Shown in pieces: positions 12,382 to 63,740 of a stretch of DNA of 64,000 nucleotides. The stretch covers positions 11,381 through 75,380 of the forward strand of contig CAZIVO010000003.1 of assembly GCA_964542765.1 (NCBI GenBank), given 5' to 3'. The position numbers and the translations under genes were made by a program. Numbering within the stretch: position 1 is the stretch's first letter; every line of letters starts with the position of its first letter. The notes below the pieces were generated by a model, which was not told the origin of the DNA, did no database searches, and saw only the letters and a list, made by a program, of their open reading frames with translations. The DNA is from an uncultured candidatus Brocadiaceae bacterium. Its GTDB lineage: Bacteria > Planctomycetota > UBA1135 > UBA2386.

Positions 12382-12618
12382 TTCTTCGTCAGGCGGCGTG
12401 AGACAGTTTTTCTGTAGCGGTTGAAGGTCCACCGCCGTCGATATCCTGCGATCAGCCTCCGAGCCGCTGCTCAGGCCGCTTGGAACTCCTTGTCCGCTCC
12501 CAATCGGGTCGTTACATTAGCTGACATTCAGCTTGCCCGGCACGTGTGGAGGGGGCTCCAGTGGTGCGGTGCGGAGCTACGGTTAGGAGCGAGCCTTCGG
12601 TTCAGAGGGGGGGCGTCG

Positions 12619-13914
12619 ATGATCGATCAATCCTTGGTAGATGCTCAGCATCGCCAATCTCGGACCCTGCTGAGTTGGGCCATTTCTCTCATCCCGGTAG
12701 CCTTGTCGGTTTTTTGCCTCTCTGCTCTGGGCTACTACCACGTGATGGTCGAGAGCGCGCAGCCGACATCGGGACTGTTGCAGGGAGTGATCGCCGGACT
12801 CTATGGCTTCCTTGGCTTCGTCCCGGCCTTCATGTGCTGTCTGCTCGTTCTGGTCTGGTCATCGATCTGGTTCATCACGGGTGAATCTACGCGCCTTTGG
12901 TCAAAGCTCGGGCGTGTCGTTGTCTTGACCCTGAGCCTTGCCATTCTCATCAACCTCCAGTCTGAGGGCATGGTTCCCGGTGACGGGGGTGGAGATTTGG
13001 GAGCCTATCTCGCCACGCGGCTCCAGAGTCTGTTCGGCTATACCTTCGCAACGCTACTGATGTCACTCGTGGTGGTCGGGGCCTTGCTGATTGCGACAGA
13101 ATTTTTCTTCTACCGCTACTTTGCTGCCATGAGTGGAGCGGATGCTTCCTGTGATGAAGGGGGAGATCTGGGCGTGGAGAATGAGGCTGCTGCGGAGTTC
13201 AAGAACATCGTTGTGGGGCATGTGGCGAAGCCGGCAGCTCCGCGGTTCGCGATGGAGGAAGAGCCTGTATCCGATGTTGTTGCTGAAGAGGGACTACCGC
13301 AAGCAGGGGCACCATCCGGGGATGATCCCATGAGCGAGGAGAGTCCACGCGCACCCCGTAGCTTCTCCGAAGAAGAAGAGGAGGAATACGAGGAAGAGGA
13401 GGAGGGCGAGGAGGAATACGAGGAAGAGGAGGAGGGCGAGGAGGAATACGAGGAAGAGGAGGAGGGCGAGGAGGAAGAGGAGGAATACGAGGAGGAAGAG
13501 GAGGGCGAGGAGGAAGAGGAGGAAGAGGAAGAGGAAGAGGAGGAGGAAGAGGAGGAAGACGAGGAATACGAATACGAATACGAATATGAAGAGGTCGAGG
13601 TGGACGTCGAAGAGGGCGAAGAGCAGGATTCGCAGGCCGACCCTGTCGAGATTCCTTCTCCCGCTGATGACCTGGACTCGCGTCAGGGCCTTCTATTCGC
13701 AGGCGAGGGCCGCCCTTCCGTTGATGATGCCGCTGATCTGGTGATCCGTTCGAACAGGGCGAGTGTCATGTTCTTGCAGCGGAGGCTCCGGGTCTCGCCC
13801 GAAGAGGCATCTGGATTACTCGACGCGCTTCGGGAGAGGGGTGTCGTGGATGGCCAGCCCGGTGAAGATTACGGCCGCATCATCATGGACCTCGCGTCTT
13901 GGGAAGGTCGCTGA
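12619..13914 (+). CDS. Motor-less FtsK paralogue: FtsK-type 4-TM domain, poly-acidic linker and FtsK-gamma-like winged helix, with no ATPase
   Basis: The ORF track start is TTG 12421. ATG 12619 is preceded by gagggggggcgtcg (SD-like). The TM domain carries GDLGAYLATRLQSLFGYTF, compare FtsK GGTVGYYVAHGLSFVFG. The C-terminus ADLVIRSNRASVMFLQRRLRVSPEEASGLLDALRERGVVDG matches the gamma-domain pattern. No Walker motifs are present. Confidence 0.7.
   Translation: MIDQSLVDAQHRQSRTLLSWAISLIPVALSVFCLSALGYYHVMVESAQPTSGLLQGVIAGLYGFLGFVPAFMCCLLVLVWSSIWFITGESTRLWSKLGRVVVLTLSLAILINLQSEGMVPGDGGGDLGAYLATRLQSLFGYTFATLLMSLVVVGALLIATEFFFYRYFAAMSGADASCDEGGDLGVENEAAAEFKNIVVGHVAKPAAPRFAMEEEPVSDVVAEEGLPQAGAPSGDDPMSEESPRAPRSFSEEEEEEYEEEEEGEEEYEEEEEGEEEYEEEEEGEEEEEEYEEEEEGEEEEEEEEEEEEEEEEEDEEYEYEYEYEEVEVDVEEGEEQDSQADPVEIPSPADDLDSRQGLLFAGEGRPSVDDAADLVIRSNRASVMFLQRRLRVSPEEASGLLDALRERGVVDGQPGEDYGRIIMDLASWEGR
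13369..13629 (+). repeat. Poly-acidic coding repeat; three exact 30-bp copies (13381-13470) encoding EEYEEEEEGE, then degenerate E/Y runs
   Basis: gaggaatacgaggaagaggaggagggcgag is repeated exactly at 13381, 13411 and 13441. The region continues to EEYEYEYEYEEVEVDVEEGEEQD. Confidence 0.95.
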
Positions 13915-19817: not shown

Positions 19818-21464
19818 ATGGTCATGCCTGAAACGCGCCGAGCCCCGCGAGGCACGCAACTCACCTGCGCCAACTGGCAGATAGAAGCTCCTTACCGGAT
19901 GATCCAGAACAATCTGGACCCTGAGGTTGCCGAGGACCCTGCGAATCTCATCGTTTACGGGGGCTCGGGTCAGGCGGCTCGGAGCAAGGAAGCGTTGGAA
20001 GGGATCTTGTCGGCGCTACGCCGCCTCCAGCCGGAAGAGACCATGCTGGTGCAGTCTGGAAAGTGTGTGGGTGTGTTTCGCACCCATGAGGACGCGCCGC
20101 GGGTGCTCATCGCGAACAGTAACTTGGTGGGTGACTGGGCAAATTGGGATGAATTTCGACGGCTGCAGGAGGCCGGGTTGATCATGTACGGCCAGATGAC
20201 AGCTGGCTCGTGGATCTACATCGGTAGCCAAGGGATTGTCCAGGGAACGCACGAGACCTTCATTGCAGCCGGTCGCCGCCATTTTGGCGGAGACCTTTCG
20301 GGGAGGTTGGTTGTGACAGCTGGGCTCGGAGGGATGGGAGGAGCGCAACCGCTCGCCGTCACCTTGGCCGGAGGGGTTTGTCTGGCTGCGGATGTTGATC
20401 CTGTCCGGATCACCAAGCGCCTCGAAACCCGGTATCTCGATCGATTTGCAGGTGACATCGATGAAGCGATCTCTCTCGCTGAAGAGATGGCAACCAAGCG
20501 CCGAGCTTGCTCTATCGGGGTTGAGTGCAATGCCACTGAGTTACTGGAGGCTCTCTTATCTCGATCTTTGGTGCCGGATCTGTTGACGGATCAGACCAGT
20601 GCCCACGACATGCTCAATGGATACGTGCCGGATGGCCGATCCTTGGCGGAGTCTTTGGAACTCCGACGCAGCGATCCGCAAGCCTATCTGGCGGCTTCTC
20701 GGGAGACCGTGGCTCGACATGTCCAGTTGATGCGAAAGCTTCAAGACCTCGGGGCGATCACGTTCGACTACGGCAACAATATACGGACCGAAGCACGCGA
20801 TGCGGGAGTTGCAGATGCATTCGAGATCCCAGGATTCGTGCCGGAATATATCCGGCCATTGTTTTGCGAGGGACGTGGCCCATTTCGTTGGGTGGCGCTG
20901 AGCGGGGTGCCCGAGGATATCTACCGAACCGATGACCTCATTCTCGAGATGTTTCCCGAGAAGGAGGATCTGGTCCGGTGGATCCGGTGCGCGCGGGAGA
21001 GGATTGCCTTTCAGGGGCTGCCGGCGCGTATATGCTGGCTCGGTTACGGAGAGCGAGAGCGCTTTGCCCTGGCAGTGAATGATCTCGTCGCATCTGGAGA
21101 GATCAGCGCGCCCGTGGTTTTCGGGCGCGACCACTTGGATTGCGGTTCCGTCGCCTCTCCCTATCGGGAGACCGAGGGAATGAAGGACGGCTCGGATGCT
21201 ATCGCAGATTGGCCGTTGCTGAATGCGATGCTGAACGTTGCGTGTGGAGCGACCTGGGTCTCCATTCACCATGGCGGTGGTGTGGGAATAGGTAGGTCGA
21301 TCCACGCTGGTCAGGTAACGGTTGCGGATGGGTCCCCAGAAGCTGCTCAGAGACTGTCACGGGTCATGACTTGTGATCCGGGCATCGGTGTGGCCCGGCA
21401 TGCCGATGCTGGTTACGGGGCTGCTCATGAGACCGCTGTGGCCCATGGAATCGATCTCGGCTGA
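19818..21464 (+). CDS. hutU: Urocanate hydratase
   Basis: 548 aa with [14 protein letters not shown] (NAD site), [22 protein letters not shown] and [14 protein letters not shown]. Confidence 0.95.
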
Positions 21465-21710
21465 CGGCTTTTTACGGATTTGTGTGGGCGGGGCTATCGA
21501 TGCAGTTGCCCCGGCTTCCCCCCCTCTAACCGGCCCTGCTAGCGTCTGTAAGGCTGCAGATGACTTTCTGCTCTGGAAATCGATCCTCGATACCGTATCC
21601 ATGATCCCTGACCATGGGAGTGGCGCCTCGGCATCGACTCAGGAATGCTTGAGATGTGGTGTCCTGGCGACCGATGGACCTCATACAACTGCAACTGCTG
21701 GGTTTTGAAT

Positions 21711-22466
21711 ATGTTCCGAACGCGTAAACCAGAAAAGGATGATCTTGCTAGCGATGACATGGTCGTCATCGTTGAGCAGGCGGTGAATCCCTTCCTCGTC
21801 GTGTTCCATGAACCATCGGGATTCCGCGCAGAGCAGATCAGGGCGCTGCGGAACAGACTCATCGCCATGAATCCGGATAGCGCTGCCAAAACATTGGTTG
21901 TCACCTCTGCGATCAGAGGTGAAGGAAAATCGGTGACGGCCGCCAATTTGGCCATGGCATTTGCGCAACTCGATCACTGTCCGGTCCTTCTCTTGGACGG
22001 CGACTTGCGGTCGCCATCGTTGGAATCCTATCTCAGTCTTGGCACGCAGCCGGGTATTGCGGATGTGCTCATGGGCCGTGTCAGCCTGGATGAAGCGATT
22101 CGAGAGACGGGAATCAACAATCTGTGGATGATGGGAGCAGGGATGGATAGTGCTGAGGGGCCCTCCGAGATCATCACGTCACCCAAGGTGGGTGAGCTGT
22201 TTGCACGATTGAAGCAGCAATTCCATTACGTGATTGTTGATACCTCGGCATGTGTGCCCGCCACGGACGCTAGCGTTTTTTCGGCGCGGGCAGATGGAAC
22301 GTTGGTTGTGGTAAGACTCGAGCATTCATCGAAGACCTTGACACAAGAAGCGATCAAGAATCTCCAGGATCTGGGGGGCAATATTCTCGGCACCTTCGTG
22401 ACCGAGGTGCGTGGAGCTGATCCGGAAGCGGACCCTCGCCTACGAGGCACTAGCAGAGGGAGGTAG
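21711..22466 (+). CDS. CpsD/CapB (BY-kinase)-like P-loop ATPase without a C-terminal Tyr cluster or a Wzz-type activator
   Basis: EPSGFRAEQIRALRNRL lead-in, Walker A SAIRGEGKS, Walker A' LLLDGDLRSP, Walker B YVIVDTSA. The C-terminus RGADPEADPRLRGTSRGR contains no Tyr. The likely start is ATG 21711; the ORF track gives 21645. Confidence 0.7.
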   Translation: MFRTRKPEKDDLASDDMVVIVEQAVNPFLVVFHEPSGFRAEQIRALRNRLIAMNPDSAAKTLVVTSAIRGEGKSVTAANLAMAFAQLDHCPVLLLDGDLRSPSLESYLSLGTQPGIADVLMGRVSLDEAIRETGINNLWMMGAGMDSAEGPSEIITSPKVGELFARLKQQFHYVIVDTSACVPATDASVFSARADGTLVVVRLEHSSKTLTQEAIKNLQDLGGNILGTFVTEVRGADPEADPRLRGTSRGR

Positions 22467-22468
22467 CC

Positions 22469-23260
22469 TTGGGGAATCTCGGCAGGGGTTTGAAGGATGC
22501 TCTTCGCAAGCTGGCGCATCGGACCTCGGTTGATCAGCTGATCGAGAGCGGTGTCACCCAGGTCAATGTTGTTGGCATGGATCGGATCGCTCAGCTCGTT
22601 GAGGAGGCGGTATACCGCAGCTTGAAGGATAAATTCCTCAGCGGGGAGCGTGCCGAGGTTGCAGAATCGACGCGCGAGGAGTTCGTGAACCTCATGCGGA
22701 GTAATGAGAGCCTGGAGCAGTCTCGCAATGAGGCGGTAGAGGCAAGGGAGCGCGCCGAGGAGTCCGTGGATGAGCTGCGTCGCGAACTCGAGGATCACAA
22801 GCGCTCTTTACGTGAGAAACTCGCCAGCGCTGAGGCCATCGAGCGCCCTCTCCAAGAGAGCGAGAATGCGGCCATCCTCGCTCGGGTAGAGGAGTTCTTT
22901 GATGATGTTGCAAGCGACTCGCCAGAGGCCTTGCTCCAGTTCAAGGGGCGGATGGCTGAGCTTGTGATGAGCTTGATTGTCAAGGAGCGAGAGGATGCGA
23001 TCCTGGCTAGGCAAGTGGCGAAGGATGCCGAGGCAGCTCGACTGGAGCGGCGCATCGAGAAGATCACAGGGATCTTGCGAGAGACCGAAGGGAAGTTAGC
23101 CTACGTGGCCAGCCTCAAGGATGTGGGTAGTGGCATCTCCTCTGTATTCCGTGAAGTACAGGGGCTCTCCGCGGAGGATATTTTTTTCGAGAAGAAGACC
23201 GCTCTGATGAGCAACCTCTTCGAAGCGAACATGGCATTGCAACAGGGCCTTGAGGATTAG
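22469..23260 (+). CDS. Acidic coiled-coil protein of unknown function
   Basis: 263 aa, E/R/A/L-rich with heptad-like stretches (EQSRNEAVEARERAEESVDELRRELEDHKRSLREKLASAEA). It has no signal peptide or TM segment. The TTG start lies 2 nt after the upstream stop. Confidence 0.6.
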   Translation: MGNLGRGLKDALRKLAHRTSVDQLIESGVTQVNVVGMDRIAQLVEEAVYRSLKDKFLSGERAEVAESTREEFVNLMRSNESLEQSRNEAVEARERAEESVDELRRELEDHKRSLREKLASAEAIERPLQESENAAILARVEEFFDDVASDSPEALLQFKGRMAELVMSLIVKEREDAILARQVAKDAEAARLERRIEKITGILRETEGKLAYVASLKDVGSGISSVFREVQGLSAEDIFFEKKTALMSNLFEANMALQQGLED

Positions 23261-23285
23261 ACGAGAAGCTTGAGAGGGATCGAAG

Positions 23286-24368
23286 ATGATGGCAGATGAA
23301 GGCACAGGCGTGAAGGAAACCACGCAATCCCAGGAAGCGCAGGGGCCACGCAAGGACCATGGCGTCCTCTATGTGGGGATGGACCTGGGGACCTCGCGCA
23401 CGTCGATTTCGGCTAGCAATGGTGTGCGAGAATCTGTCTTCTCCGTTGTCGGCTACCCCAAGGATGTGGTCAGTCGGAAACTGTTGCAGCGGGATGTCCT
23501 GTTTGGCAAGGAGGCGATGGACAAGAGACTGTCCTTGGATTTTTATCGCCCTCTTGAGAAGGGCGTCCTCAAGGATGATGAGAAGGATAAAGGGGCTGAT
23601 GCTGCCAAGGATCTGATCGGTGAGGCGATCCGGATCTCTCAACCGCGTTCCGACGAGTTGATCTATGCCGTGATCGGTGTTCCTGCTCAGGCCTCGATGA
23701 AGAACAAGGAGGCGATAGTCGAGGCGGCGCGCGAGCATGTTGATTCCGTGATGCTTTGCAGTGAGCCCTTTGCTGTGGCTTATGGGCTGGAGATGCTCGA
23801 AGACGTTTTGGTTGTCGACATCGGAGCCGGGACCATGGATATGTGCCGTATGCACGGCACGATGCCCGAAGAGGCGGATCAGATCACATCCGAAATCGCC
23901 GGAGATGCTGTCGATGCACGGTTATCGGAGTTGGTCGGTGAAGCCTGTGCAGGCGTTCAGTTCACGCCCCAGATGATCAAGGAACTCAAGGAGCGGCATG
24001 CTTACGTGGGGAATCCGGCCGGGCCTTGCCTCGTGCAGTTGCCAGTGAATGGCAAGCCGACGGAGTTCGATATCACGGCGCAGGTGAAGGAGGCTTGTGA
24101 GATCCTTGTGCCGGAGATCACCCAAGGAGTGACCTCCCTGATTTCCTCCTTCGACCCCGAATTCCAGGAGAGGTTGCGTGGCCGGGTCCTCATCGCCGGT
24201 GGCGGTTCCCTCGTGAAGGGGCTGGATCTGGCGGTCGAGGAATCTCTGAATAAAAATCTTGGAGGCGCCAAGGTGATCCGTATCGAGGAACCGATCTACG
24301 GCGGTGCCAACGGTGCCCTGAAAATCGCGCAAGACATGCCCGGGGAATACTGGGAGAGGCTGAAGTAG
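23286..24368 (+). CDS. MamK-like bacterial actin (ASHA/actin-fold ATPase)
   Basis: Actin-fold motifs VGMDLGTSRT (phosphate 1), VVDIGAGTMD (phosphate 2) and IAGGGS (adenosine). VVGYPKDVVSRKLL, VIGVPA, SEPFAVAYGL and the terminal ..EYWERL match my recollection of Magnetospirillum MamK better than MreB, ParM or FtsA. Confidence 0.75.
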   Translation: MMADEGTGVKETTQSQEAQGPRKDHGVLYVGMDLGTSRTSISASNGVRESVFSVVGYPKDVVSRKLLQRDVLFGKEAMDKRLSLDFYRPLEKGVLKDDEKDKGADAAKDLIGEAIRISQPRSDELIYAVIGVPAQASMKNKEAIVEAAREHVDSVMLCSEPFAVAYGLEMLEDVLVVDIGAGTMDMCRMHGTMPEEADQITSEIAGDAVDARLSELVGEACAGVQFTPQMIKELKERHAYVGNPAGPCLVQLPVNGKPTEFDITAQVKEACEILVPEITQGVTSLISSFDPEFQERLRGRVLIAGGGSLVKGLDLAVEESLNKNLGGAKVIRIEEPIYGGANGALKIAQDMPGEYWERLK

Positions 24369-24473
24369 CAGGCTGTCGCGGCCAGGCCGAAAAGTTTCTC
24401 GGTTGTTGACCTGAGTAAGGAGGCTTTGAGCCTTGTCAGGCGAGTTTGTGGCGCTGCTCTGTAGCGTGCAGAG

Positions 24474-25250
24474 TCAGTCGATCCCGAACTCGGATCGGAG
24501 GATCTCTTTGAGTTCGTAGAAGTCATGAATCTCGAAGTCGGGGTCGGTCACGCCTTCAGCTATTGCATGTCGCCCGGATCGCTTGATACGGGTTGCGATG
24601 AAGCCTTCTTGCTTGCAGGGATCGATGTCGTGAGTGGGGTTGTCACCGACATACATGACTCGTGATGCTTCCAGGTCGAGATCCGTGAGGACTCGCCGGT
24701 AGAGTTTCGGATTCGGCTTGCTGATGCCGATCTGGTCCGTGAGGAAGATGGCTGAGGGGGTGATGAAGTCGTGGATCTTCAGGCGGATGATCTTCTCGGC
24801 CTGCTTGACGGTCCATCCGGCGGAGATGATGCCGACGATGGGCACCTTGCCGGCGACCCATCGCAAGACATCGTAGGCATCGTCATGGACCTGGAATTCT
24901 CGCCATTTGGTCTCATGGTAGGCGACAACACCCGCGGCGACGAGAATGGCAGGATTCAGTCCCGCTGTTGCTTCTGCCGGCAACCGGAGCAAGAGTTTGT
25001 CGAAGTGGCGGTCGTAGTTGCTCGAGAACTCGCCGAGAACTTCTTCAAGTTCTCGGCGACATGACTCCCGTTCAGCGCGGAGGCCATGCTTGATCATGGC
25101 ATCGATGGCTGCTCGGCGCGCCTTGTCTGCGAACACCGATGTGGAGAAGAGCGTGTCGTCGATATCGAAGAAGATCGCGTCGAGACTGCGTGTTACTCCA
25201 GCGCGGCCGTGTCCCTTTTTTTGCTCAGAACCGGATTCGGCCTCGCCCAC
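24474..25250 (-). CDS. HAD-superfamily hydrolase/phosphatase
   Basis: Motif I FFDIDDTLF, motif II GIISAG, motif III/IV K...YVGDNPTHD. The start lies 4 nt downstream of the secretin-1 stop. Confidence 0.8.
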   Translation of the reverse strand: MGEAESGSEQKKGHGRAGVTRSLDAIFFDIDDTLFSTSVFADKARRAAIDAMIKHGLRAERESCRRELEEVLGEFSSNYDRHFDKLLLRLPAEATAGLNPAILVAAGVVAYHETKWREFQVHDDAYDVLRWVAGKVPIVGIISAGWTVKQAEKIIRLKIHDFITPSAIFLTDQIGISKPNPKLYRRVLTDLDLEASRVMYVGDNPTHDIDPCKQEGFIATRIKRSGRHAIAEGVTDPDFEIHDFYELKEILRSEFGID

Positions 25251-25254
25251 GGGC

Positions 25255-27846
25255 TTAGCGCCGATCTTCCATCAGGTCCTTTACATCCGTGATCGTGGCG
25301 CGGACCAAGACCATCAAACTCGAGTTCTCGTCGGAGACACCTTCCTGCTTGAACAGGAAGGAGAGGATGGGGATTTTAGACAGGATCGGGGTCTCGGCTT
25401 TTCGCTCGGTAGCCAGCACTTCACGGAGCCCACCCAGGAGGACCGAACCACCGTCTGGAACCTCTGCCGTGGTGGCGAATGACTTCACCCTCATGATCGG
25501 CAGTTGCAAGGTGACGGGCAGTGTTGAGCCTGCCAACGAGGTTGAGAATGTTGGGATTGGACGAACCAACTCCGCGATGGTGGGCTGCAAGCTCAAGGCT
25601 ACGCGCCTACGATCGTGGGTGATGGTCGGTCGAACGTCGAGGACAACCCCGTCCTGGATGACATCGACTTTCGGATCTGCGATGAACGATGCCTGCGCCA
25701 CTTCGATGTCGAAGTCACGGACGTAGGAGGTCTGGTTGATGACCGCCACGTTGGCTCGTTCGTTGTTGAGCACGGTGATGGTTTGGCTATTGACCACCTG
25801 GATGTCTTGGCGCTTTTCGACGGCTCTGATCAAGGCCTGCACCTGTAGATCGTCAAGAAGCGAGATGCTTGCCGTGGCACCGCCGGTGGTGCTCAGGGCG
25901 CGCCCGAGCCCTTGAGAGAAGAAGTTTTCGGTGCGTGCTCGCACGTCACCGTCACCTCCGTCGTTGAAGAAGGCGCCAGCACTCGGACGGCCAGCTTCTT
26001 CGCCTGTGCCTGCATTATCGAAGCCACGCGAGGCATTGTCATCGAGCATGTTTGTGATGTCATCGAGCGTCGAAACCGTTCCCTTGGCTCCCGATCCACC
26101 CAAACCACGGAAGTCCACGCCGATTTCCTGGATGAAGTTCTGGGTGACCGTGAGGAATTTCGATTCGATCGTGACGACGGTTGTCGCGAAGCGGCGCTGG
26201 TCGTTGAGGAGTTGAATCACTCGCTGCTGCATTTCAGGATTGGCAGTCACCAGCAGGTAGCCGCCTTCGACAGCTTCCATCATGCCCCCGCCTTCGGCGT
26301 CCCAGTAGGTATCGCCACCAGTCGCATCCTTGATGTTCGCGGCGAGGGTATCGAGTTCTATATAGGCGATTCTCTCATCTGCTTCGCCGCCGATTCGTGG
26401 GCCGCTCATGCCGGTATCGCCAGATGGCATGTCGCGAACGGTGGGAGGGAGGAACGTGGTGATGGGGAAGACCAGATCGCGGACATCGTGGCTGATCAGG
26501 GTGCTATTGCCACCGGCCAGGGCCCTTGTAGTGATCTCGACAACGCCGTTGCGCACGGTCCATGCGAGGCTCTCACTCTTGGCTACCATGTGGTCCAAGA
26601 AATTGGCAACGGAAATGGATGAGACGAGTTCCATCTCAAGTACCAGACTCTCATCGTCGATGGCTTCTTGTGCTTCTGGCGTGATGATGATGGGGATGCT
26701 GGTGATGGTCTGTACGAGTTTGCGGACTTCGTTGTAGTCACCAGTTTCTTCCGTGAAGGACAGCTTGCCGACGGCCTTGGTCTTGACCTGCTCCATGATG
26801 GCGGCGTCGTCTGCATCTACCGTCGTTGTCGGGAGGCTCTGCTTTTGGCGCTGGCTAGCGGTCTTCCATGTTTCGGGATTGGTTCGAAGGATGTCGGTCT
26901 GCGGAATCTTCAGGTCCTCGGCGGCCTCGAGCATCTTGGTGAACTCGCGCCGTTTCTCGGCGTAATAGGCATCGGTGCGGGATTCACGCCCAGCCTTGAT
27001 CGATGCATTGTGGAGGTTGCGCGCGACGTGATTCACGGGCTCAAGTTGCAGCGCTTGGAAAGCGAGTTCCTCAGCAATCCGGAATTTCCGATCCTCGAAG
27101 GCTCGGATAGCAGTCGTCAGGAAGCGGTCTACCTTGGCGTCATGGCGTGCGCGTTCGCGCTCCTCGACGAGGCGTAGCTGCTGTTGTGTCTCGCGTTCCA
27201 GGATGTCTTGCTTTTCGAGGAGAGCTGCGTCATGAGCCTTCTGAGCCTGTGCAAGAAGATCTTCGCTTCGCTGTTTGATGTTGCCCCACTCGATGTCCGA
27301 GCCGACTTCAATGTGTAGAAGGACTTGCTTGGCGTTCTGAATCGCCACCGCGTTATTGCCCTGCTCCATCGATTGATGGCCAGACTCAAGCAGGTCGATG
27401 GCGCGGGCCTTGGCACGCTCTTCACGGATCCTCCACAGCTGAGCCATCGCTTGCCCATAGGTCTGGATCGTTCCTGGATCATCCGGGTTGATCTCGCTCT
27501 TGATGGTCGCGATTCTCTGGTTGACTTCGTTGCTGCCCGGTGTGAGTTCCTGCGCACGCAGTAACAACGCCAGCGCTTGCTCAAGTTCTCCCTGCATTCG
27601 AAGGTCGCGAGCATCGGCCAGATACTTTGTCACGAGAAACTTGGCGCGCTGTGTGCCGATTTCACCTGTTCCCGGATCTTGCTGCGGTGTGAGCGGCCGA
27701 GTCAAGGTTGCATCATCGGCATAAGAGCTTCCAGAACTCGTGCCGGAGCACGATGGCAGAAAGCAGGTAAAGACGCAGAGTGCGGAAGAGGAGATTGCGA
27801 GGGCTAGTCGACGGTTCAGTTTGGGAATCATGTCGGCTTCGTTCAC
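25255..27846 (-). CDS. Secretin-family outer-membrane channel (paralogue 1) with an N-terminal TPR-like helical region
   Basis: C-terminal secretin domain: ...VVLDVRPTITHDRRRVALSLQP...VPDGGSVLLGGL...ETPILSKIPILSFLFKQ...LMVLVRATI. An N0/STN-like domain is also present (ISVANFLDHMVAKSESLAWTVRNGVVEITT). The Cys-containing signal peptide FLPSC fits if the start is ATG 27831; the ORF track start is GTG 27846. Confidence 0.85.
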   Translation of the reverse strand: MNEADMIPKLNRRLALAISSSALCVFTCFLPSCSGTSSGSSYADDATLTRPLTPQQDPGTGEIGTQRAKFLVTKYLADARDLRMQGELEQALALLLRAQELTPGSNEVNQRIATIKSEINPDDPGTIQTYGQAMAQLWRIREERAKARAIDLLESGHQSMEQGNNAVAIQNAKQVLLHIEVGSDIEWGNIKQRSEDLLAQAQKAHDAALLEKQDILERETQQQLRLVEERERARHDAKVDRFLTTAIRAFEDRKFRIAEELAFQALQLEPVNHVARNLHNASIKAGRESRTDAYYAEKRREFTKMLEAAEDLKIPQTDILRTNPETWKTASQRQKQSLPTTTVDADDAAIMEQVKTKAVGKLSFTEETGDYNEVRKLVQTITSIPIIITPEAQEAIDDESLVLEMELVSSISVANFLDHMVAKSESLAWTVRNGVVEITTRALAGGNSTLISHDVRDLVFPITTFLPPTVRDMPSGDTGMSGPRIGGEADERIAYIELDTLAANIKDATGGDTYWDAEGGGMMEAVEGGYLLVTANPEMQQRVIQLLNDQRRFATTVVTIESKFLTVTQNFIQEIGVDFRGLGGSGAKGTVSTLDDITNMLDDNASRGFDNAGTGEEAGRPSAGAFFNDGGDGDVRARTENFFSQGLGRALSTTGGATASISLLDDLQVQALIRAVEKRQDIQVVNSQTITVLNNERANVAVINQTSYVRDFDIEVAQASFIADPKVDVIQDGVVLDVRPTITHDRRRVALSLQPTIAELVRPIPTFSTSLAGSTLPVTLQLPIMRVKSFATTAEVPDGGSVLLGGLREVLATERKAETPILSKIPILSFLFKQEGVSDENSSLMVLVRATITDVKDLMEDRR

Positions 27847-28403
27847 TCAGGGGTGTCGTGACCCGGAATTTGTGCAGATGTACAGACCATTAGCTCAACA
27901 AAAGGCGGCATCGGGGCCGCAGGTGATATGAGAGAGGGTCGGGCCAGCATCATACGTGCGAGGTAGAGCCCAAGCCGCAGGGCGCGCGGCCTGGATGGTC
28001 TCAGAGGCTATAAAAAGTATTCCCCTTGGCGGTGACGTGCCACCCCCAAATGGGGGTCTTTTGGTCCTTCTTTGGTTTGGCGGCATGACGTAATCACTAG
28101 ATTTCACAATGGTTAGCCTATGAATCAGCCCCGTCGCCGCGGCGGCGGGTGCCCTGGCCTCGGGCCATGCCCACAGAGATCCCCTTACCATGGGTTTCGC
28201 GAGGCCCGCCGCTGTTTTGATGTGATCGGGGGGAGGGCGCAGCCCGGATCACTCCGTTCGGGCCGGGCCAAGAGTGCACACTTGCGTTTGCCACCACTGG
28301 GGGATGTCAGGGCTTCAATTGGCCCGGGGGGTGGTGCGTGCGCGTGCCGGATCCGGGGGTGGCCGCCGAGATAGGGGCGATGGGGATGCCGCCGCCGCCG
28401 GGG

Positions 28404-28973
28404 CTATCGGCTTCGCATCTCGCGCCGCTTGTTGGCTTCCGCGCTTCCCCTCGCACCCATGCCCCCGCCAAAGTTGACATCGGTGAAGCCTGCGTTTGTC
28501 ACGGCATCGACCGTGAGTGCAACGTCGCCGTATGTGGTCTCTTCGGTGGGCTCCACCACGACTCCCATCAGCTTGGGTTCGCCGGTCTTTGGGTCAGTCT
28601 GCATCTTGGATTTATCCTTGGCGATGCGCTTGAGCTCTTCGAGCAACTTGTCGATCTCGCGGAGTTTCTTGGGACCGACTTCCCAGTGGATCTGGTGACC
28701 TTCGAGTCTGTAACTCCCTTCCGGGCGCTTCTTGTAGCGAGGAGACTCGGTCCCCCAGTTCGTGCAGACAATCTTGATTTCCAGCTTCTCTTGTGGCTCG
28801 ACATCGGTGGAGTGTGCACCGACGTCCTTGGGCAGATAGGCCGGCAGCTTTGCCTCGAGGACTTTGAAGTCGATACAGAGAAAGAAAATGATCAGCAGGA
28901 AGACGACGTCGATCATCGGCGTCATGTCCATCTCGAACTCTTCATCGACTTGTTCGCGAATGAGGTCTCTCAT
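28404..28973 (-). CDS. exbD: ExbD/TolR-family biopolymer transport protein (paralogue 2, elongated)
   Basis: EFEMDMTPMIDVVFLLIIFFL is the canonical ExbD N-terminus and TM segment. The C-terminal YGDVALTVDAVTNAGFTDVNF is ExbD-like. At 189 aa it is longer than the roughly 135 aa typical of the family. Confidence 0.85.
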   Translation of the reverse strand: MRDLIREQVDEEFEMDMTPMIDVVFLLIIFFLCIDFKVLEAKLPAYLPKDVGAHSTDVEPQEKLEIKIVCTNWGTESPRYKKRPEGSYRLEGHQIHWEVGPKKLREIDKLLEELKRIAKDKSKMQTDPKTGEPKLMGVVVEPTEETTYGDVALTVDAVTNAGFTDVNFGGGMGARGSAEANKRREMRSR

Positions 28974-28988
28974 GAGTCTTTCCCTGCT

Positions 28989-29513
28989 CTATTTCTGGAG
29001 CTTGGCTTCCTTGTCCTCTTCACTCATGGCGAGCTCGAGCTTCCAGAAGGCGGCATCTTTTTGCGTGCAAGCCGTCATGAACTTGCCGACATAGTGCCAC
29101 TCGGTCCATTTGTCAGCGCGAATCAGCACAGGGTCATCGACGACCGTCATCGTCATTCCGCCGCCGACCGTCTCTTTCTTGATATTCTCTTTCTTGCAGA
29201 CATTGTCGCGCCAGTAGACCAAGAGCTTGTGGATGTCTTCGGTGTACTGCTTGTCCGCAACCTTGGGATCTGCCCACTGGTTCTTCTTGTAGATGATGTT
29301 CCCGGACTGAGCGATATTGACGATCGGGCGGACATCGGCAGGTTGGTCATCTGGGACGGCGTACAGGGCCTTCGGCAGGATCAGATCCTCGAGATCTTGC
29401 TGGCTAAGGTCGATGACGAGCACGAAGAAGATCATCAGGAGGAAGACGCAATCGATCATGGGCGTCATGTCCATCTCCAGTTCCTCCTGGGCGTGTTTTG
29501 TTGCCTTGCTCAT
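28989..29513 (-). CDS. exbD: ExbD/TolR-family biopolymer transport protein (paralogue 1, divergent periplasmic domain)
   Basis: ELEMDMTPMIDCVFLLMIFFVLV. The likely start is ATG 29513, preceded by aaggag. The ORF track start is 29585. Confidence 0.8.
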   Translation of the reverse strand: MSKATKHAQEELEMDMTPMIDCVFLLMIFFVLVIDLSQQDLEDLILPKALYAVPDDQPADVRPIVNIAQSGNIIYKKNQWADPKVADKQYTEDIHKLLVYWRDNVCKKENIKKETVGGGMTMTVVDDPVLIRADKWTEWHYVGKFMTACTQKDAAFWKLELAMSEEDKEAKLQK

Positions 29514-29592
29514 GCCAGCGCTCCTTGTTCGATGGTTGCCCGATGCCGAGTCATCGGCGGCGGGTTGTTTGCGGTCATTCCGCACATTGGCA

Positions 29593-30318
29593 TTATCCCT
29601 TGGACCCGGCGCGGAAACGCTCGAACAGGTCTTCGGCCAAGGCGTTCACCTCGATGGTCGTCCGCACAACCTTGTTGCGGAAGGTGAAGAAGAACGCGCC
29701 AACGGGGATGGCCACGATCAGCCCGAAGATGGTGGTGGTGAGCGCCAGCTTGATACCTCCGGCGAGTTGCGCCGGACTGACAGATCCGCCAGCACTGGCG
29801 ATTTCACCGAAGGTGACGAACATACCGGTCACGGTCCCGAGCAGGCCCATCATCGGCGCCGTCGCACTGATCAAGGAGAGCCAGCCCACTTTCTGGAACA
29901 GCTTGACCGCTTCTTCGTCTTGCATCTCACGCATTGCCGTTTGAATGGTGTCAAAGGGATGCCCGAGTTTGCCAAGCCCGGAGGCGATGATGTTGGTGAA
30001 GTAAGTCCGCTCGTTCTCGCAGAGTTCGAGAGCATCCTGGAAGGTTTCTTCATCGAACATGGCCTCCATCTCGTCGATCAGATCTGGTGGGGCGAGCTTG
30101 TCGCGCTTGATCGTCATGAAGTTCTCGATGATCAGCGCCAGAGACACGATTGAGATGAGGACGATCACCCAGCCGATGATGCCCGCATGTGCGAACATGT
30201 CAGAGACTGCGTTTCTCTGTTCGGTTGTTTCCTGCGCGGCCGCGGGTGCAGCGAGAAAGAGAGGGGCGAACGCGGGCAGAGTTGCGGTCAACTTGTGAAA
30301 TGATTCAGGCAGTTTCAT
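29593..30318 (-). CDS. exbB: MotA/TolQ/ExbB proton-channel protein
   Basis: Three TM segments with GIIGWVIVLISIVSLALIIE and LISATAPMMGLLGTVTGMFVTF (the conserved ExbB/TolQ TM2-3 region). It has an N-terminal signal-like segment. The likely start is ATG 30318; the ORF track gives TTG 30372. Confidence 0.9.
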   Translation of the reverse strand: MKLPESFHKLTATLPAFAPLFLAAPAAAQETTEQRNAVSDMFAHAGIIGWVIVLISIVSLALIIENFMTIKRDKLAPPDLIDEMEAMFDEETFQDALELCENERTYFTNIIASGLGKLGHPFDTIQTAMREMQDEEAVKLFQKVGWLSLISATAPMMGLLGTVTGMFVTFGEIASAGGSVSPAQLAGGIKLALTTTIFGLIVAIPVGAFFFTFRNKVVRTTIEVNALAEDLFERFRAGSKG

Positions 30319-30341
30319 GAAACCGTCTCGATTCGATTGCT

Positions 30342-30372
30342 GAAAAAACACTTGGGGCGAGGGCCACCCCAA
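30342..30372 (-). terminator. Terminator-like hairpin (ttgggg-N9-ccccaa, then gtgtttttt) between the TPR-like gene and exbB
   Basis: Read on the minus strand. The stem covers 30372-30367 and 30357-30352, and the T-run covers 30348-30343. It lies about 24 nt upstream of the exbB ATG. Confidence 0.35.
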
Positions 30373-30493
30373 TAAGTCTGAAAGGTGTTTCTAGGGGTCC
30401 TCTTGTCGGAGGGATAGGTAGAGTTTGCGTGTGAAGTCCGTTCGGGGGAAGCCCCGGTTACCGGTTCATGTAAGAATTTCCCCTGGATAGGAT

Positions 30494-31627
30494 TCACCGG
30501 GAAAGTTCCTCGCGGGCTAGAGATGCCCATGGTGTCGAAGCGTAAAAACGGGTCACGGCATTGAAGTAGGCAGCGGCACGAGCCTTCTTGTCCTTTTCTT
30601 TGTCGGAGGAGATGGCGAGCAAGACCTTGCCAGTGAAGTAGAGGGCCTTGGCCGTTGTGCTTCCATCTCCGATGTCGAGAAGATTGGCCATTGCGAGTGC
30701 TACTTGGGCGTCCCGGAGTGCTTTGTGATCTTGGCTCGTAGAGCCTTTCATGAAAAGGGCCTGGCCCTTTCCTGCGTAGGCAGCGGCCTGCACCGAGGTT
30801 GGTTGGTTGGACGACGTGGGGTTCTCAAACTTTTGGAAATAGATCAGGGCTTGGTCGTATTGCCCTTCAGCAATGAAGGTTTCGCCCTCGCCGACGACCG
30901 ATTGGGACTTGAGTTTATGAAGTTGTGGATCGGTGTCGCCCGAATTGAGAGCGGCATCGACGGCAGAAATCACGCCGCGGTAGGTGGAGCGTGCCTCAGC
31001 GTGTTTGTTCAGGGCAACTTGGGCGAGGGCTTTCTCGAATTTGGCTCGCGCATCCCAGATGAGTCCCCAGCTGTTTTGGATCGCCAGATTCTCGTATTCC
31101 GTCAGCTTTGTTTCTGCTTCGGCGGCCTCGCCCTGCAGTCGCACTGCCCGTGCGATCGCCAGACGAGCTGCCGGGATCCTCAGCCCGTCAGGGGCGCTGC
31201 TCACGTAGTCTTCCATGGAGGACTGTGCCCCGGCGGCCTTGTCCACATCATCTCCGGCTGCTCGTAACAGTGCGTCTGCTGCCTGAAACTTCAGCTCAGC
31301 TTGGAAGACAGGTCTGCTCGTGCCTGTCTCGGCCTCCTTGTAGAAGTTGGCAGCTTTTTCGAAGTTGCCCTTGGCCATGGCTACTTGGGCGATGAGGTAG
31401 CTTTCCGGCGGTTCATGCCAGTCGATGGTTTGGATCTTGCTGGCGGATAGCTTCGACTCTTTCGACCCACGCTTGTAGGTGATGGAGTCGGTGGTCATGG
31501 AGGTTACTTCGACACCTCGTACTCGTGCTCCGTCGGTTTGGATGATCGTGTCCTTGATCTTTTGAGCGCCGACAGGGGCGGTGACCAAGAGGGCCGTGCC
31601 ACATGCGATAGCCGTGATGAGTTTCAT
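30494..31627 (-). CDS. Exported TPR-like helical-repeat protein with a small N-terminal beta domain
   Basis: The signal peptide MKLITAIACGTALLVTAPVGAQ fits a start at ATG 31627 (the ORF track start 31690 would overlap the upstream gene by 4 nt). Helical repeats include GNFEKAANFYKEA and GQYDQALIYFQKF. It has no recognisable catalytic motif. Confidence 0.6.
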   Translation of the reverse strand: MKLITAIACGTALLVTAPVGAQKIKDTIIQTDGARVRGVEVTSMTTDSITYKRGSKESKLSASKIQTIDWHEPPESYLIAQVAMAKGNFEKAANFYKEAETGTSRPVFQAELKFQAADALLRAAGDDVDKAAGAQSSMEDYVSSAPDGLRIPAARLAIARAVRLQGEAAEAETKLTEYENLAIQNSWGLIWDARAKFEKALAQVALNKHAEARSTYRGVISAVDAALNSGDTDPQLHKLKSQSVVGEGETFIAEGQYDQALIYFQKFENPTSSNQPTSVQAAAYAGKGQALFMKGSTSQDHKALRDAQVALAMANLLDIGDGSTTAKALYFTGKVLLAISSDKEKDKKARAAAYFNAVTRFYASTPWASLAREELSR

Positions 31628-31686
31628 TGAACCTGTCCCCGAGCCGATTCTCGTTCTGATTACTGTTTGTCGAGTCACCGATATCC

Positions 31687-34587
31687 TCATCGTGGTGGTG
31701 GGTTCGCCTGGAACAACTGATACAGCTCGTAGGCTTGGCTGTCCGTGCTCCCCATCTCGCTGAGCTTGGCGAATTCGTCCGTTGCCCGGGCCTTGCTATA
31801 GAGGGTGTTCGCGTAGCGCCGGTAATTGGTGTCGTCTTTCCCGGCCTGCACGGCGTAGTAGTAGCACTCCCAGTGGAAGAGGTACCACGGCGTCGAATAG
31901 TCGGTCACTCCCCGCAGGCTGTTCAGTGCGTAGCTCTTGTATTCGCGCCACATCTTGTCGTAGGCCTTTTTCGGGTCACCGAGGCCCTGGTAGGTCTTGA
32001 TGGTTCCGCGATCATCTATCTCTTTCCAGCCTCCCAGGCTCATGGCGATGAGCCGTTTGAGCGGGTAATTCTTTGGGCTGGCCTTCTCGGTAGCGCTCAG
32101 GAGGTCATGGGCTTGCCGGTACTTGTGTTGTTTGAGCACCGCTTGCCCGACGATCAGCTTCACAAATCTCTGGACACGATCCTTGGACTTGGAGTCTTCG
32201 CCGAAGAGTTCGATGATGTTGGCCCCCAGCGACTCGACCAGTTGCCAGTCTTTCAGGGCTTCAGCCTGGAGAAGCGTGATGTATGCAATGCCATACTGCG
32301 GCTTGTCTGATCCCTTGAGGTAGTCTCTTCCCAAGGCGAGCAGTTGTCGTCGCAGCGACTCCAGCTTCTGGGTCTCAGCCAACAGCTGGCTTTTATTGGT
32401 CCGGACCTCGTCGCTGCTGACCGTGAGTTCCATTGCCTTGACCTGATCATTGAAGGCCGTGAAGACGGCAGCAGCCAGGTTGGCGACGATCACATCCCTC
32501 GGAGCAACTTTTTGTAGTTTGCGATACTGCTCCTCGGCTTTGTTCAAGGCTCCGGTCACCACGTGGGATTTGCCAATCACGTAGAGAACTCTTGGAAGCA
32601 GGCTTGGCGATATCTGGCTGTGGCGGCCTTCCCAGTCGCTCAGCGCTGCGATTGCTTTGGGATAAAGTGTCAGGTTCTTTTTTCCGCCACGGCCTTCGGC
32701 TTCCACAAAGAGCATGTAGCCATCGTAGAAGTCGATTTCTGATTGGGCGAGTGCGCGGGTTTGGCGCAGATCGCTCCGGTCATCGGCCAGGATAGCCTCT
32801 TTCGATTCGAGCCATTGCCGATATGCCGCGACGGTTTTGCGAGCAGCGGCGTGATCGCCGAGGCGTTGGTTGGCAGAGACGATGCGTGCTTGGGCCCATT
32901 CGTAATAGATGGAGTCAGGCGTGATTTTTGTGTAGTGGCCAATTGCGTCTGCATACTTGCCTTCGCGTATGGCACCGATGCCCTTGTTCCAGTACTGCTT
33001 TGAAGCGCTGGCGGTGGACCCGAAGCGAGCGGTGAGAGCCGTGATCTCGTCGTTCAGTTGGTCGAAGTAGGAGTCAGATTTGCTGAGAGCGCGTACCTGT
33101 CGCATGGTTCGCTCGATCAGGTCGGAGGCTTTCTCCACGGTGGCCTTGTCGGGGCAACTCGACCCGTATTTGTCGAGGCCGGATTTCAGTGCAAGCGTTG
33201 CTTCGACCGCACGATTTTGCAGGATGAAGCACTGAGCCAGCGAGTAGTAGGCTTCTACAGCGGAGGTAGCTTTCTCCTCATTGCTCATGGCGGCGAGGGC
33301 ACGCTTGAAACCGTGAATCGCGATCTCGTAGTTCTTTGCCTGGTAGTCGCCCTTGGCGACTTCCAGGAGAAGTTGCGCGCTGACCAGCATGCTCTGTGCG
33401 GCGAGGATGTCCTTGATGACCGTCTTGGCCTGGAGCCCGATGGCATCGTTGGGGTGTTTTTGATTGTAGTATTTGGCCTGCTCGAGCGAGCGAGCGACGA
33501 GTTCAGGCTTGCCGGACTCCGCCATGGCCCGAGCTTCGATGATGTAGAGAGCGTGCCCGAACCGAAAGTCTTCCTTGCCGTCGATGAACTTTCCGCTCTC
33601 GTACTTTGTGACGGGGACGTTGAGCGATTCCAGGTGCTTGCGGTAATCGGCGACGAGGGTGAGTACGTCATCGCTTTTGCCGAGCTGGAACAAGGCCTGC
33701 CCTCGCCGGTTGTAGGCCTCCTCCATGAGGATGACCATCAGTTCGCGGATATCCCCGGACAGGTCGAGACGCTCGTCCTTGAGGGCCATGTCTGCGGCAT
33801 CGATCACATCCTGGAAAGCGGTTTCGGCCGCATCCAGATCTCCCATCACTTCGTCACACGTGGCCATCTCAAGCAGGCCTTTCAGGCCGAGCGCTGTCTC
33901 TTCGCCGACATCGAAGATCAACTCTTCGAGTTCTTCACGGGCCCTATCGACCAGATGGTCGCGGTCTTTGCGGACGGCACGGCCGTGTTCGCGCAGAAGG
34001 ATCCCTTTGCGCAACCAGCTCAGGTGGTAGCGGAGGCTGTCTGTGGCGTTGGCATCCTTGAGTCGTTCAAGTCCACTCATGGCCTTATTGGCTGCCGTGA
34101 CACCACCCCGGAATACGCTTGCCGCTTCTTCTTCCAAGGTCTGAACCTTGTCCGGCTCCTCCGACCGTGCGATGCTGATTTCTTCGACGAGGTTTCGGCC
34201 ATACTCGATCGATGCATCCGACATCGTGATGCGAGATTGCATTGCGACGGGGTCGTTGGGGTAGCGCGAGATCAGGTCTTCCATGCGCTTGAGGGCGTCT
34301 TTGAACAGGGTGCGCCGCGTTTCACGGTTGGGGTGTAGCTTGGCTCCGATCACCGAAATGTCGATGCCGAGCTGTGCAACGGACTTGAAGTCGTTGCTAT
34401 CCTGATACTCTTTCTTGAGTCGGTCGGCTTCTGACTGCGCCAGGGAGATGAAGCGTAGCTTTTCGGCGAGTGCGCGCACGAAGGACACATCGCGCTCTAC
34501 CTTGCTCGACTGGGCGGAGAGAGAGGGGAGAAGGACGAGAACCGCAAGTGCGACTGGGGCCAGCCTCGATATCATAGGAGACGACAT
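31687..34587 (-). CDS. Large exported all-TPR/helical-repeat protein (966 aa)
   Basis: Signal peptide LAVLVLLPSLSAQ. After it come more than 15 TPR-like A/Y/L-patterned repeats, for example GDYQAKNYEIAIHGFKRALA and GKYADAIGHYTKI. Confidence 0.7.
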   Translation of the reverse strand: MSSPMISRLAPVALAVLVLLPSLSAQSSKVERDVSFVRALAEKLRFISLAQSEADRLKKEYQDSNDFKSVAQLGIDISVIGAKLHPNRETRRTLFKDALKRMEDLISRYPNDPVAMQSRITMSDASIEYGRNLVEEISIARSEEPDKVQTLEEEAASVFRGGVTAANKAMSGLERLKDANATDSLRYHLSWLRKGILLREHGRAVRKDRDHLVDRAREELEELIFDVGEETALGLKGLLEMATCDEVMGDLDAAETAFQDVIDAADMALKDERLDLSGDIRELMVILMEEAYNRRGQALFQLGKSDDVLTLVADYRKHLESLNVPVTKYESGKFIDGKEDFRFGHALYIIEARAMAESGKPELVARSLEQAKYYNQKHPNDAIGLQAKTVIKDILAAQSMLVSAQLLLEVAKGDYQAKNYEIAIHGFKRALAAMSNEEKATSAVEAYYSLAQCFILQNRAVEATLALKSGLDKYGSSCPDKATVEKASDLIERTMRQVRALSKSDSYFDQLNDEITALTARFGSTASASKQYWNKGIGAIREGKYADAIGHYTKITPDSIYYEWAQARIVSANQRLGDHAAARKTVAAYRQWLESKEAILADDRSDLRQTRALAQSEIDFYDGYMLFVEAEGRGGKKNLTLYPKAIAALSDWEGRHSQISPSLLPRVLYVIGKSHVVTGALNKAEEQYRKLQKVAPRDVIVANLAAAVFTAFNDQVKAMELTVSSDEVRTNKSQLLAETQKLESLRRQLLALGRDYLKGSDKPQYGIAYITLLQAEALKDWQLVESLGANIIELFGEDSKSKDRVQRFVKLIVGQAVLKQHKYRQAHDLLSATEKASPKNYPLKRLIAMSLGGWKEIDDRGTIKTYQGLGDPKKAYDKMWREYKSYALNSLRGVTDYSTPWYLFHWECYYYAVQAGKDDTNYRRYANTLYSKARATDEFAKLSEMGSTDSQAYELYQLFQANPPPR

Positions 34588-34625
34588 TCCTGGTTAGGGT
34601 CTGATTCCAGGTGGGTTAGAACTAG

Positions 34626-34649
34626 TCAGGAAGGAGGGGTTCTTCCTGA
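34626..34649 (-). promoter_or_regulatory. Perfect 8-bp stem hairpin (tcaggaag-N8-cttcctga) in the leader of the 966-aa TPR gene
   Basis: Read directly. It lies about 40 nt upstream of the start codon at 34587 and has no U-tract. Confidence 0.3.
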
Positions 34650-34775
34650 TTCGCGGTTGCTGATTGCAGATATGCAAGCGCAGCTAAGGCGATGGAACGG
34701 CGGAGTATAGCGCCCGGTTCATCCTGCGCACCGGAAAAGCTTCGGATGCACCGACAGGCGTGCCCACATGCCGGA

Positions 34776-63516: not shown

Positions 63517-63740
63517 TGCTGCCTTCCTGACGTGAGCAAAACGATGGGCTATCCGAACCCGGCGAGATCCATACCGCGGCACCGAGATATGGAAGTATGG
63601 GTTCGAACAGAAGCCCAGATTCGCTTGTTGGTGCAGCAGGCGCAAGGGTGTCAGACCCCGGACCTGTCTCAGATCTGTATTCGCGGTGTCGGGCTACAGG
63701 CCGGTTGGGGGGGAGCAAAAATTTGCGGTGGCAAGTTGTA

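Follow-up and report, generated by a model that had tools for sequence, protein, structure and literature searches.

Our results concern three genes in a 64-kb stretch of DNA from an uncultured candidatus Brocadiaceae bacterium (64,000 nucleotides of contig CAZIVO010000003.1; hereafter the window), and they suggest that these genes form a chromosomal cytoskeletal operon of Saltatorellus-related Planctomycetota. Three consecutive open reading frames (ORFs) on the + strand at 21711–24368 encode, in this order, a P-loop ATPase of the bacterial tyrosine kinase (BY-kinase) type, a coiled-coil protein and an actin of the MamK family. The ORF listing gives gaps of 2 nt and 25 nt, as an earlier note on this DNA had stated when it described a compact operon. 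In our reading the operon would encode the subunit of an actin filament together with an adaptor that docks on it and a nucleotide-dependent regulator that can be swapped. We put the probability of this reading at roughly 0.6. The actin is not itself new. The novelty lies in what accompanies it: the family to which its coiled-coil partner belongs, the pairing with a BY-kinase-type ATPase and the exchange of this ATPase for a GGDEF domain in related lineages. None of these is mentioned in the papers searched on saltatorellin or on MamK with coiled-coil Mad proteins, and we found no paper that describes the combination, as the earlier note had supposed.

Model scores, structures and alignments agree in making the window actin an orthologue of saltatorellin and hence a member of a named, partly characterized family. 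It scores 409.8 bits against the NCBIfam MamK model NF040964 and passes the cut-off of 400, whereas the models for BeeR and MreB give 201.5 bits (cut-off 530) and 59.5 bits (cut-off 293). The earlier assignment of the protein to MamK-like actins rather than to MreB, ParM or FtsA therefore stands. Solved structures in the PDB rank in the same order (MamK 263 bits, E 2.6e-77; BeeR 131 bits; MreB 40 bits), as do the Foldseek matches of the AlphaFold2 (AF2) model, with MamK first (E 3e-28), then BeeR, then MreB, for a model whose mean predicted local distance difference test score (pLDDT) is only 68.5. The motifs quoted earlier for the actin (VVGYPKDV, VIGVPA, SEPFAVAYGL, VVDIGAGTMD, GGGS and the C-terminal EYWERL) are all present in the translation. 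An alignment of 20 actin relatives shows no variation in DLGTSRT, DIGAGT, GGGS or the Glu of SEPF, and the N-terminal 25 or so residues form a variable tail.

The closest characterized relative is the MamK-like actin of the cultured planctomycete S. ferox Poly30, with 65% identity over 354 of the 360 residues and a shared C-terminal YWE(R/Q)LK. Wiegand et al. named the S. ferox protein “saltatorellin” in a 2019 preprint (bioRxiv 10.1101/817700); the protein that we compared begins with MTDITTD and ends with YWEQLK, and both termini match the primers published there. A neighbour-joining tree of 82 family members, rooted on a single outgroup (MamK of strain AMB-1), places the S. ferox and window actins in one ingroup relative to that MamK, to which the window actin is 39% identical on trimmed alignment columns. 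Relatives are numerous. A word-indexed search returned more than 3,000, those at about 70% identity being annotated as “MamK family actin-like protein [Planctomycetota]”, and a scan with one genome per species found relatives in 411 genomes, the complete S. ferox Poly30 chromosome among them. Since it is an orthologue of the named saltatorellin, and NCBI already annotates the family, the window actin is a known rather than a new protein.

Filaments were seen when saltatorellin fused to mCherry was produced in E. coli and in a mamK mutant of Magnetospirillum (M. gryphiswaldense), and a role in cell-shape change was proposed without genetic evidence (10.1101/817700). By analogy, the window actin is expected to form ATP-dependent filaments. 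The main text of the preprint does not contain the terms “operon”, “coiled-coil” or “tyrosine kinase”, and it does not discuss the neighbours of saltatorellin. It is these neighbours that we turn to here.

The coiled-coil protein encoded directly upstream of the actin has no counterpart among the families of Pfam or NCBIfam. The profile hidden Markov model and Foldseek searches that the earlier note had proposed for this protein returned neither a family nor a fold: no family passes threshold in Pfam and NCBIfam scans, and the best match of its AF2 model in the PDB has an E value of 0.84, so that no known fold is indicated. The model itself is entirely helical (mean pLDDT 81), with long helices at residues 61–146 and 152–222. 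None of the three proteins contains a membrane-like segment (the highest 19-residue Kyte–Doolittle mean is 1.31), in agreement with what had been said of this 263-aa protein. It had also been called acidic, and an analogy to MamJ had been drawn from this. The protein is indeed acidic (predicted isoelectric point 4.9), yet this is not a distinctive property, because the actin (4.8) and the ATPase (5.3) are acidic as well, and the analogy is accordingly weak. Word-indexed searches under-sample this fast-evolving partner (10 and 74 matches), and we relied instead on an exhaustive profile search, which yields 1,150 cluster representatives with an E value of at most 1e-3, of which 887 stay at or below 1e-10. 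On the strength of these searches the partner belongs to a newly described protein family, and a large one, for which there is no Pfam model.

What defines this family is its C-terminus. The sole invariant or near-invariant columns lie in the last 70 or so residues and are common to all three architectures described below. In order, the family module comprises a helix with the sequence LERRIxKL, the motif G-[IV]-[AS]-S-x-Y-R-x-V-Q-G-L and, at the end, the helix KKxxLMxxIFEANLxL. In the window protein the module spans residues 192–263 and reads LERRIxKL, then G222-I-S-S-V-F-R-E-V-Q-G-L-S, then KKxxLMxxLFEANxxL. The motif region (residues 220–233) has a pLDDT below 50 in the monomer model, which would fit a linear binding motif that folds on its target. 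We also considered the terminal helix as an amphipathic membrane-targeting anchor and rejected this, its hydrophobic moment being only 0.1–0.3.

Upstream of the common module the family takes three forms. Members of the first, about 260 aa long and found in the main clade, which includes the window, carry a conserved helical N-terminal domain of 85 residues (65 sequences aligned; consensus LKDAVRxLAxRTSVDxLKKxGVxQVNVxGxDRI...RSLK). Those of the second, about 340–385 aa long, begin with a Pfam GGDEF domain, which was recognized in 58 of the 147 top partner representatives with scores of up to 70 bits. These GGDEF domains are catalytically degenerate because the active site has been lost: GG[DE]EF occurs in none of 134 long family members, and the site usually reads xxDDR. 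Members of the third form, about 160–190 aa long, have a low-complexity N-terminus; S. ferox Poly30_26750 is an example.

How firmly the partner is tied to the actin was assessed in 80 species loci, in which ORFs were called and then searched with the window proteins. A partner homologue lies directly upstream of the actin gene in all 79 loci that include upstream DNA; the remaining one (L071) begins at the actin. The association also holds in the opposite direction, as three look-ups that started from partner proteins all led to an adjoining actin gene, one of them encoding an actin 50% identical to that of the window. In one locus (L082, 7126–8158, on a 284-kb contig) the actin beside a GGDEF-type partner appears to be frameshifted near its N-terminus, with tblastn matches in two frames, which is probably an assembly error.

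The full trio of ATPase, partner and actin occurs in the same order in 65 of the 80 loci, with the ATPase gene, wherever present, directly upstream of the partner gene and a median distance of 2 nt from stop to start. Four loci are not assessable for the ATPase, since three contigs end within the partner gene and L071 starts at the actin; the other 11 lack the ATPase and have a GGDEF-type or short partner instead. Because the same trio recurs in the same order in 65 species loci, it is not a chance arrangement. The co-occurrence that the earlier note had proposed to test was thus found for most loci, although the trio is not a universal unit. The alignments and the actin tree indicate that the conserved core is the pair of coiled-coil protein and actin, and that the ATPase is confined to one clade: loci with the ATPase are monophyletic, GGDEF-type loci form another clade and short-type loci branch outside both.

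The distribution of the partner's N-termini follows the same division. The 85-residue domain was seen only in loci that also have the ATPase; elsewhere its place is taken by a GGDEF domain or a low-complexity tail. This strict co-occurrence is our main argument that the N-terminal domain and the ATPase interact.

The ATPase passes the NCBIfam model for tyrosine autokinase domains (TIGR01007, 117.8 bits, cut-off 108.05); Pfam assigns it to AAA_31, and among solved structures it comes closest to CapB, VpsO, BceF, Etk and Wzc. The Walker motifs quoted in the earlier note are all there: Walker A SAIRGEGKS, Walker A' with the DxD motif LLLDGDLRSP, and Walker B in YVIVDTSA, which includes the quoted VIVDTSA. 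They are accompanied by ExxRxxR (AEQIRALRNRL), one of the features by which BY-kinases are defined (PMC2422856). GEGKS, DGD, VIVDT and ExxRxxR (EQIRALR) are conserved across 67 ATPase sequences. EQIRALR aligns with EKFRGIR of CapB, and ExxRxxR in helix alpha-2 is the ring-interface motif. Judged by these matches, the protein is a CapB/Wzc-type ATPase that has kept all catalytic motifs as well as the ring-interface motif. We also considered the ParA/MinD class with its deviant Walker A motif and rejected it, as the P-loop IRGEGKS lacks the signature lysine of KGGxGK[ST] and MinD models reach only about 50 bits against cut-offs above 200.

The earlier note had described this ATPase as a CpsD/CapB-type protein without tyrosine cluster, transmembrane activator or nearby polysaccharide genes, and both the family assignment and the scans of the larger ORFs of the window agree. 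Its neighbours are hutU and the coiled-coil gene. As for the tyrosines, the statement is right for the window protein, whose tail DPRLRGTSRGR has none, and needs qualifying for the family: of 67 ATPase family members (window included), 63 have tyrosine within 22 residues of the C-terminus, in most cases just one, which belongs to the motif RLAYE. At its other end (residues 1–27, window 21711–21790) the ATPase is longer than the CapB core by about 18 residues. This N-terminal extension holds a conserved strand-like segment, DDMVV[IV]V[DE]Q, which might replace the activator strand that CapA supplies to CapB.

From the observed family identities, motif conservation, gene order, co-occurrence and domain swap we infer physical contacts, a direction of regulation and a cellular role as follows. 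The saltatorellin orthologue would form ATP-dependent filaments. The coiled-coil partner would be a dedicated adaptor that, to judge from the predicted structure, probably oligomerizes through its long helices and probably docks on the actin via the invariant C-terminal module, that is, via the disordered motif and the helix that follows. The BY-kinase-type ATPase, whose gene ends 2 nt before that of the partner, is the probable binding target of the partner's 85-residue N-terminal domain. The ATPase, acting as a nucleotide-dependent switch or as a tyrosine kinase, could then determine the time and place at which adaptor and filament engage. Sister lineages have, in the place of this input, a GGDEF domain that is catalytically dead and forms part of the same adaptor protein.

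Several points weigh against this reading. First, all loci come from one phylum and their neighbourhoods are largely syntenic, so that part of the linkage may simply be inherited gene order. Second, the near-invariant tyrosine of the partner motif is equally conserved in the 11 loci without ATPase and is replaced by Phe in the window and in two other loci, while the window ATPase has lost its tail tyrosine. A simple kinase–substrate relation at the motif and tail tyrosines is disfavoured, because the former is conserved without the ATPase and both are lost in the window. Third, no cargo gene is consistently linked to the actin across the loci, although the earlier note had suggested that the system may position or segregate a cargo, and no membrane anchor was seen in the three proteins. 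Fourth, the AF2 model of the actin is of modest quality.

One could argue that the ATPase is a true tyrosine kinase with the actin or the partner as its substrate, and that it is phosphorylation, not binding, that controls polymerization or docking. The passed TIGR01007 threshold and the conservation of all catalytic motifs are what one would expect of a kinase, as are the single tail tyrosine in 63 of 67 orthologues and the near-invariant tyrosine in the partner motif. Moreover, BY-kinases phosphorylate other proteins, even without a tyrosine cluster, and CapB is a case in point (PMC2422856). The pattern of tyrosines just described nevertheless speaks against it: the motif tyrosine is weakened as a kinase target by its conservation in clades without the ATPase and by the Phe in the window, where the ATPase tail has no tyrosine either. 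Nor does the operon contain a cognate phosphatase gene of the low-molecular-weight protein tyrosine phosphatase or PHP type. We therefore consider phosphorylation of this kind unlikely, though a serious alternative.

The convergent HAD gene was considered as the missing phosphatase and rejected. It belongs to the convergent secretin operon, following the secretin gene after 4 nt (both on the strand opposite to the actin), and in loci where insertions part it from the actin it remains beside the secretin gene. It is adjacent to the actin in 41 of 47 loci, displaced in four and absent in two, with the trio still intact. In addition, the S. ferox HAD protein is not orthologous to that of the window (36% identity over 61 aa).

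It is also conceivable that the ATPase serves polysaccharide or envelope export and is a mere passenger beside the actin pair. Its nearest characterized relatives are, after all, capsule and extracellular polysaccharide kinases; in 45 of 47 assessable loci the neighbour is an envelope cluster with secretin, ExbBD and TPR genes; and in the Saltatorellus-type clade the genes before the pair encode a flippase, a UbiA enzyme and a GT-C glycosyltransferase. However, Pfam scans of the larger ORFs of the window (about 50 proteins) detected no Wzz/PCP, Wza/OPX, Wzx, Wzy, polysaccharide-export or sugar-transferase genes, and the secretin cluster is convergent, on the opposite strand. In 65 species only about 2 nt separate the ATPase gene from the partner gene, and the ATPase strictly co-occurs with one specific N-terminal domain of the partner. 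We hold the passenger explanation to be very improbable.

Even less probable in our view is a DNA segregation system in the manner of ParMRC, in which the actin would be the motor, the coiled-coil protein a centromere-binding adaptor and the ATPase an accessory. An actin gene next to a gene for a small adaptor does resemble the layout of type II partition loci, but a repeat search found no centromere-like repeat array in or around the operon, only short scattered repeats within coding sequence. The partner is predicted to be an all-helical coiled coil and matches no DNA-binding family, ParM models of Pfam match the actin weakly (E 0.04), and the locus lies between hutHU and an envelope operon in a housekeeping chromosomal setting.

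That the actin is a MamK serving a magnetosome island elsewhere in the genome is scarcely credible: it does pass the MamK model of NCBIfam, and magnetosome genes are reported for some Planctomycetota genomes (PMC5955933, PMC7602337), yet the Pfam scans of the larger ORFs of the window turned up no magnetosome-type domain, in line with the earlier note, the preprint assigns no magnetosome role to the orthologue in cultured S. ferox and links it to shape change (10.1101/817700), relatives occur in 411 species genomes, and the actin has a conserved partner of its own that is not a mam gene. The export, segregation and magnetosome explanations are thus each contradicted, because a tested feature opposes each of them.

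Returning to the adaptor and its exchangeable regulator, one can take the argument a step further. The Saltatorellus group might possess a modular, signal-regulated actin system, in which a universal C-terminal docking module recruits or nucleates saltatorellin filaments and takes its input from exchangeable nucleotide sensors. One lineage would use a ring-forming BY-kinase-type ATPase for this, and others a degenerate GGDEF domain. In this extended form the idea is speculative and, as a whole, rather unlikely to be right. If it were true, bacteria would have an equivalent of regulated actin-assembly factors, one that could drive changes of shape or division in the absence of FtsZ, which Planctomycetota lack. 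Our result would also widen the range of BY-kinase-type ATPases from polysaccharide export to the control of a cytoskeleton. More immediately, a partner that is always present and has a short invariant motif, together with two alternative regulatory inputs, provides testable handles on saltatorellin.

The features of the locus are collected in Table 1. For the ATPase an alternative upstream ATG exists at 21645; the start given in the table (MFRTRKP...) matches the N-terminus MFRRKKP of 66 orthologues. The TTG start of the partner is backed by the alignment, in which the orthologues share this start position and often have GTG or TTG as start codon. A scan of 21300–24600 found no promoter-like (sigma-70-like) site, and terminator-like matches in the same region are at background level.

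Table 1. Positions of the three genes, the domains of the partner and the upstream intergenic region in the window
Feature	Positions	Strand	Remarks
Intergenic region between hutU and the ATPase gene	21465..21710	no strand	246 nt; presumed operon promoter, from position only
Soluble BY-kinase-type P-loop ATPase	21711..22466	+	251 aa
Coiled-coil partner of the actin	22469..23260	+	263 aa, TTG start
N-terminal domain of the partner	22469..22723	+	residues 1–85
Family-defining C-terminal module of the partner	23042..23257	+	residues 192–263
MamK-family actin-like ATPase	23286..24368	+	360 aa

The trio is set among housekeeping and envelope functions on the chromosome. Upstream lie an efflux set (OEP, HlyD, MacB), CoaBC, FtsK, DnaB, BamA and HutHU, with hutU found upstream of the trio in 35 of 52 assessable loci. 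Downstream, in convergent orientation, follow HAD, a secretin, two ExbD, ExbB, TPR proteins and a second secretin. Further along the window are genes for a uracil-DNA glycosylase, an aminotransferase, an extracytoplasmic-function sigma factor, a multihaem cytochrome, amine oxidases and GcvT.

Some of these neighbours deserve mention in their own right. The envelope cluster occupies 24474–37442 on the - strand and comprises, besides the secretin gene (25255–27846) and the HAD hydrolase gene 4 nt after it, ExbB, two ExbD, a 398-aa protein of unknown function, a 966-aa TPR protein and a second secretin with TPR. It is unusual to see secretins paired with a Ton/Tol-like ExbBD motor. Synteny between the cluster and the actin trio holds in the main clade (the 45 of 47 loci mentioned above), and other clades lack the cluster. 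A full-length FtsK (9934–12381) is directly followed by a 497-aa paralogue (12421–13914) that consists of the region with four transmembrane segments and the gamma domain only, without a motor domain, and that has no match in NCBIfam. Two further genes on the - strand are unrelated to our finding: one for a 1,126-aa protein with a beta-propeller and C-terminal ankyrin repeats (60265–63645), and that for the multihaem cytochrome, which is of the MtrC/c554 type (51993–53030).

The Saltatorellus-type clade has a different neighbourhood (L076, 35–8285; L083 and L084, whole loci). There the pair is part of a co-directional block in the order flippase (Polysacc_synt/MatE), HAD, UbiA prenyltransferase, PMT_2 (the GT-C glycosyltransferase), partner, actin and DUF3810. 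Such a block may encode a pathway for lipid-linked glycans, a possible hint of a role connected with the envelope.

Among known systems, the S. ferox locus (L076) is the most similar. Its actin is the full-length orthologue described above, and a partner with the same C-terminal module, Poly30_26750 (5239–5772), is encoded directly upstream. Unlike the window, S. ferox has no BY-kinase-like ATPase at the locus, and its upstream partner is the short form of 178 aa. A second partner gene, of the degenerate GGDEF type, lies about 5 kb downstream of saltatorellin (12059–13060) and runs past the end of the locus.

The next comparison is with MamK and its adaptors. In Magnetospirillum MamK works with MamJ and MamY, and in Desulfovibrio magneticus RS-1 MamK and Mad28 are accompanied by the coiled-coil proteins Mad20, Mad23, Mad25 and Mad26 (PMC12748827). 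Like the system in the window, these combine a MamK-family actin of the same fold (263 bits to MamK in the PDB) with dedicated, nearby-encoded adaptors that are mostly coiled-coil or acidic. They differ in that the window has no magnetosome genes and that its partner resembles no family in Pfam or NCBIfam. The type of regulator differs too. In a comparison that was not systematic, the abstracts of the MamK papers considered here mention neither a P-loop ATPase nor a GGDEF domain, which are the regulators in the present system.

BeeR of Verrucomicrobiota is likewise a MamK relative from a non-magnetotactic bacterium of the Planctomycetota–Verrucomicrobiota–Chlamydiota (PVC) group. It has a disordered N-terminal tail and forms a three-stranded tube (PMC11929497). 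The window actin differs in that it stays far below the cut-off of the BeeR model (201.5 against 530 bits) and matches the BeeR structure with 131 bits compared with 263 for MamK. ParMRC, the type II plasmid partition system, shares with the window an actin-like motor and a small adaptor encoded beside it, whereas the window has neither centromere repeats nor a DNA-binding adaptor, and its setting is chromosomal and housekeeping.

Finally, the ATPase can be set beside CapA/CapB of S. aureus (PMC2422856) and PtkA of B. subtilis with TkmA, SalA or MinD (PMC5035731, PMC4205851). In contrast to CapB and PtkA, the window ATPase has no tyrosine cluster (most orthologues have one tyrosine), no transmembrane activator and no polysaccharide genes, and it is linked to an actin. 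All have a catalytic domain that is soluble and carries the Walker A, DxD and Walker B motifs as well as the ring interface ExxRxxR. PtkA, moreover, uses soluble activators, and this precedent fits the N-terminal domain of the coiled-coil partner as a possible activator of the ATPase.

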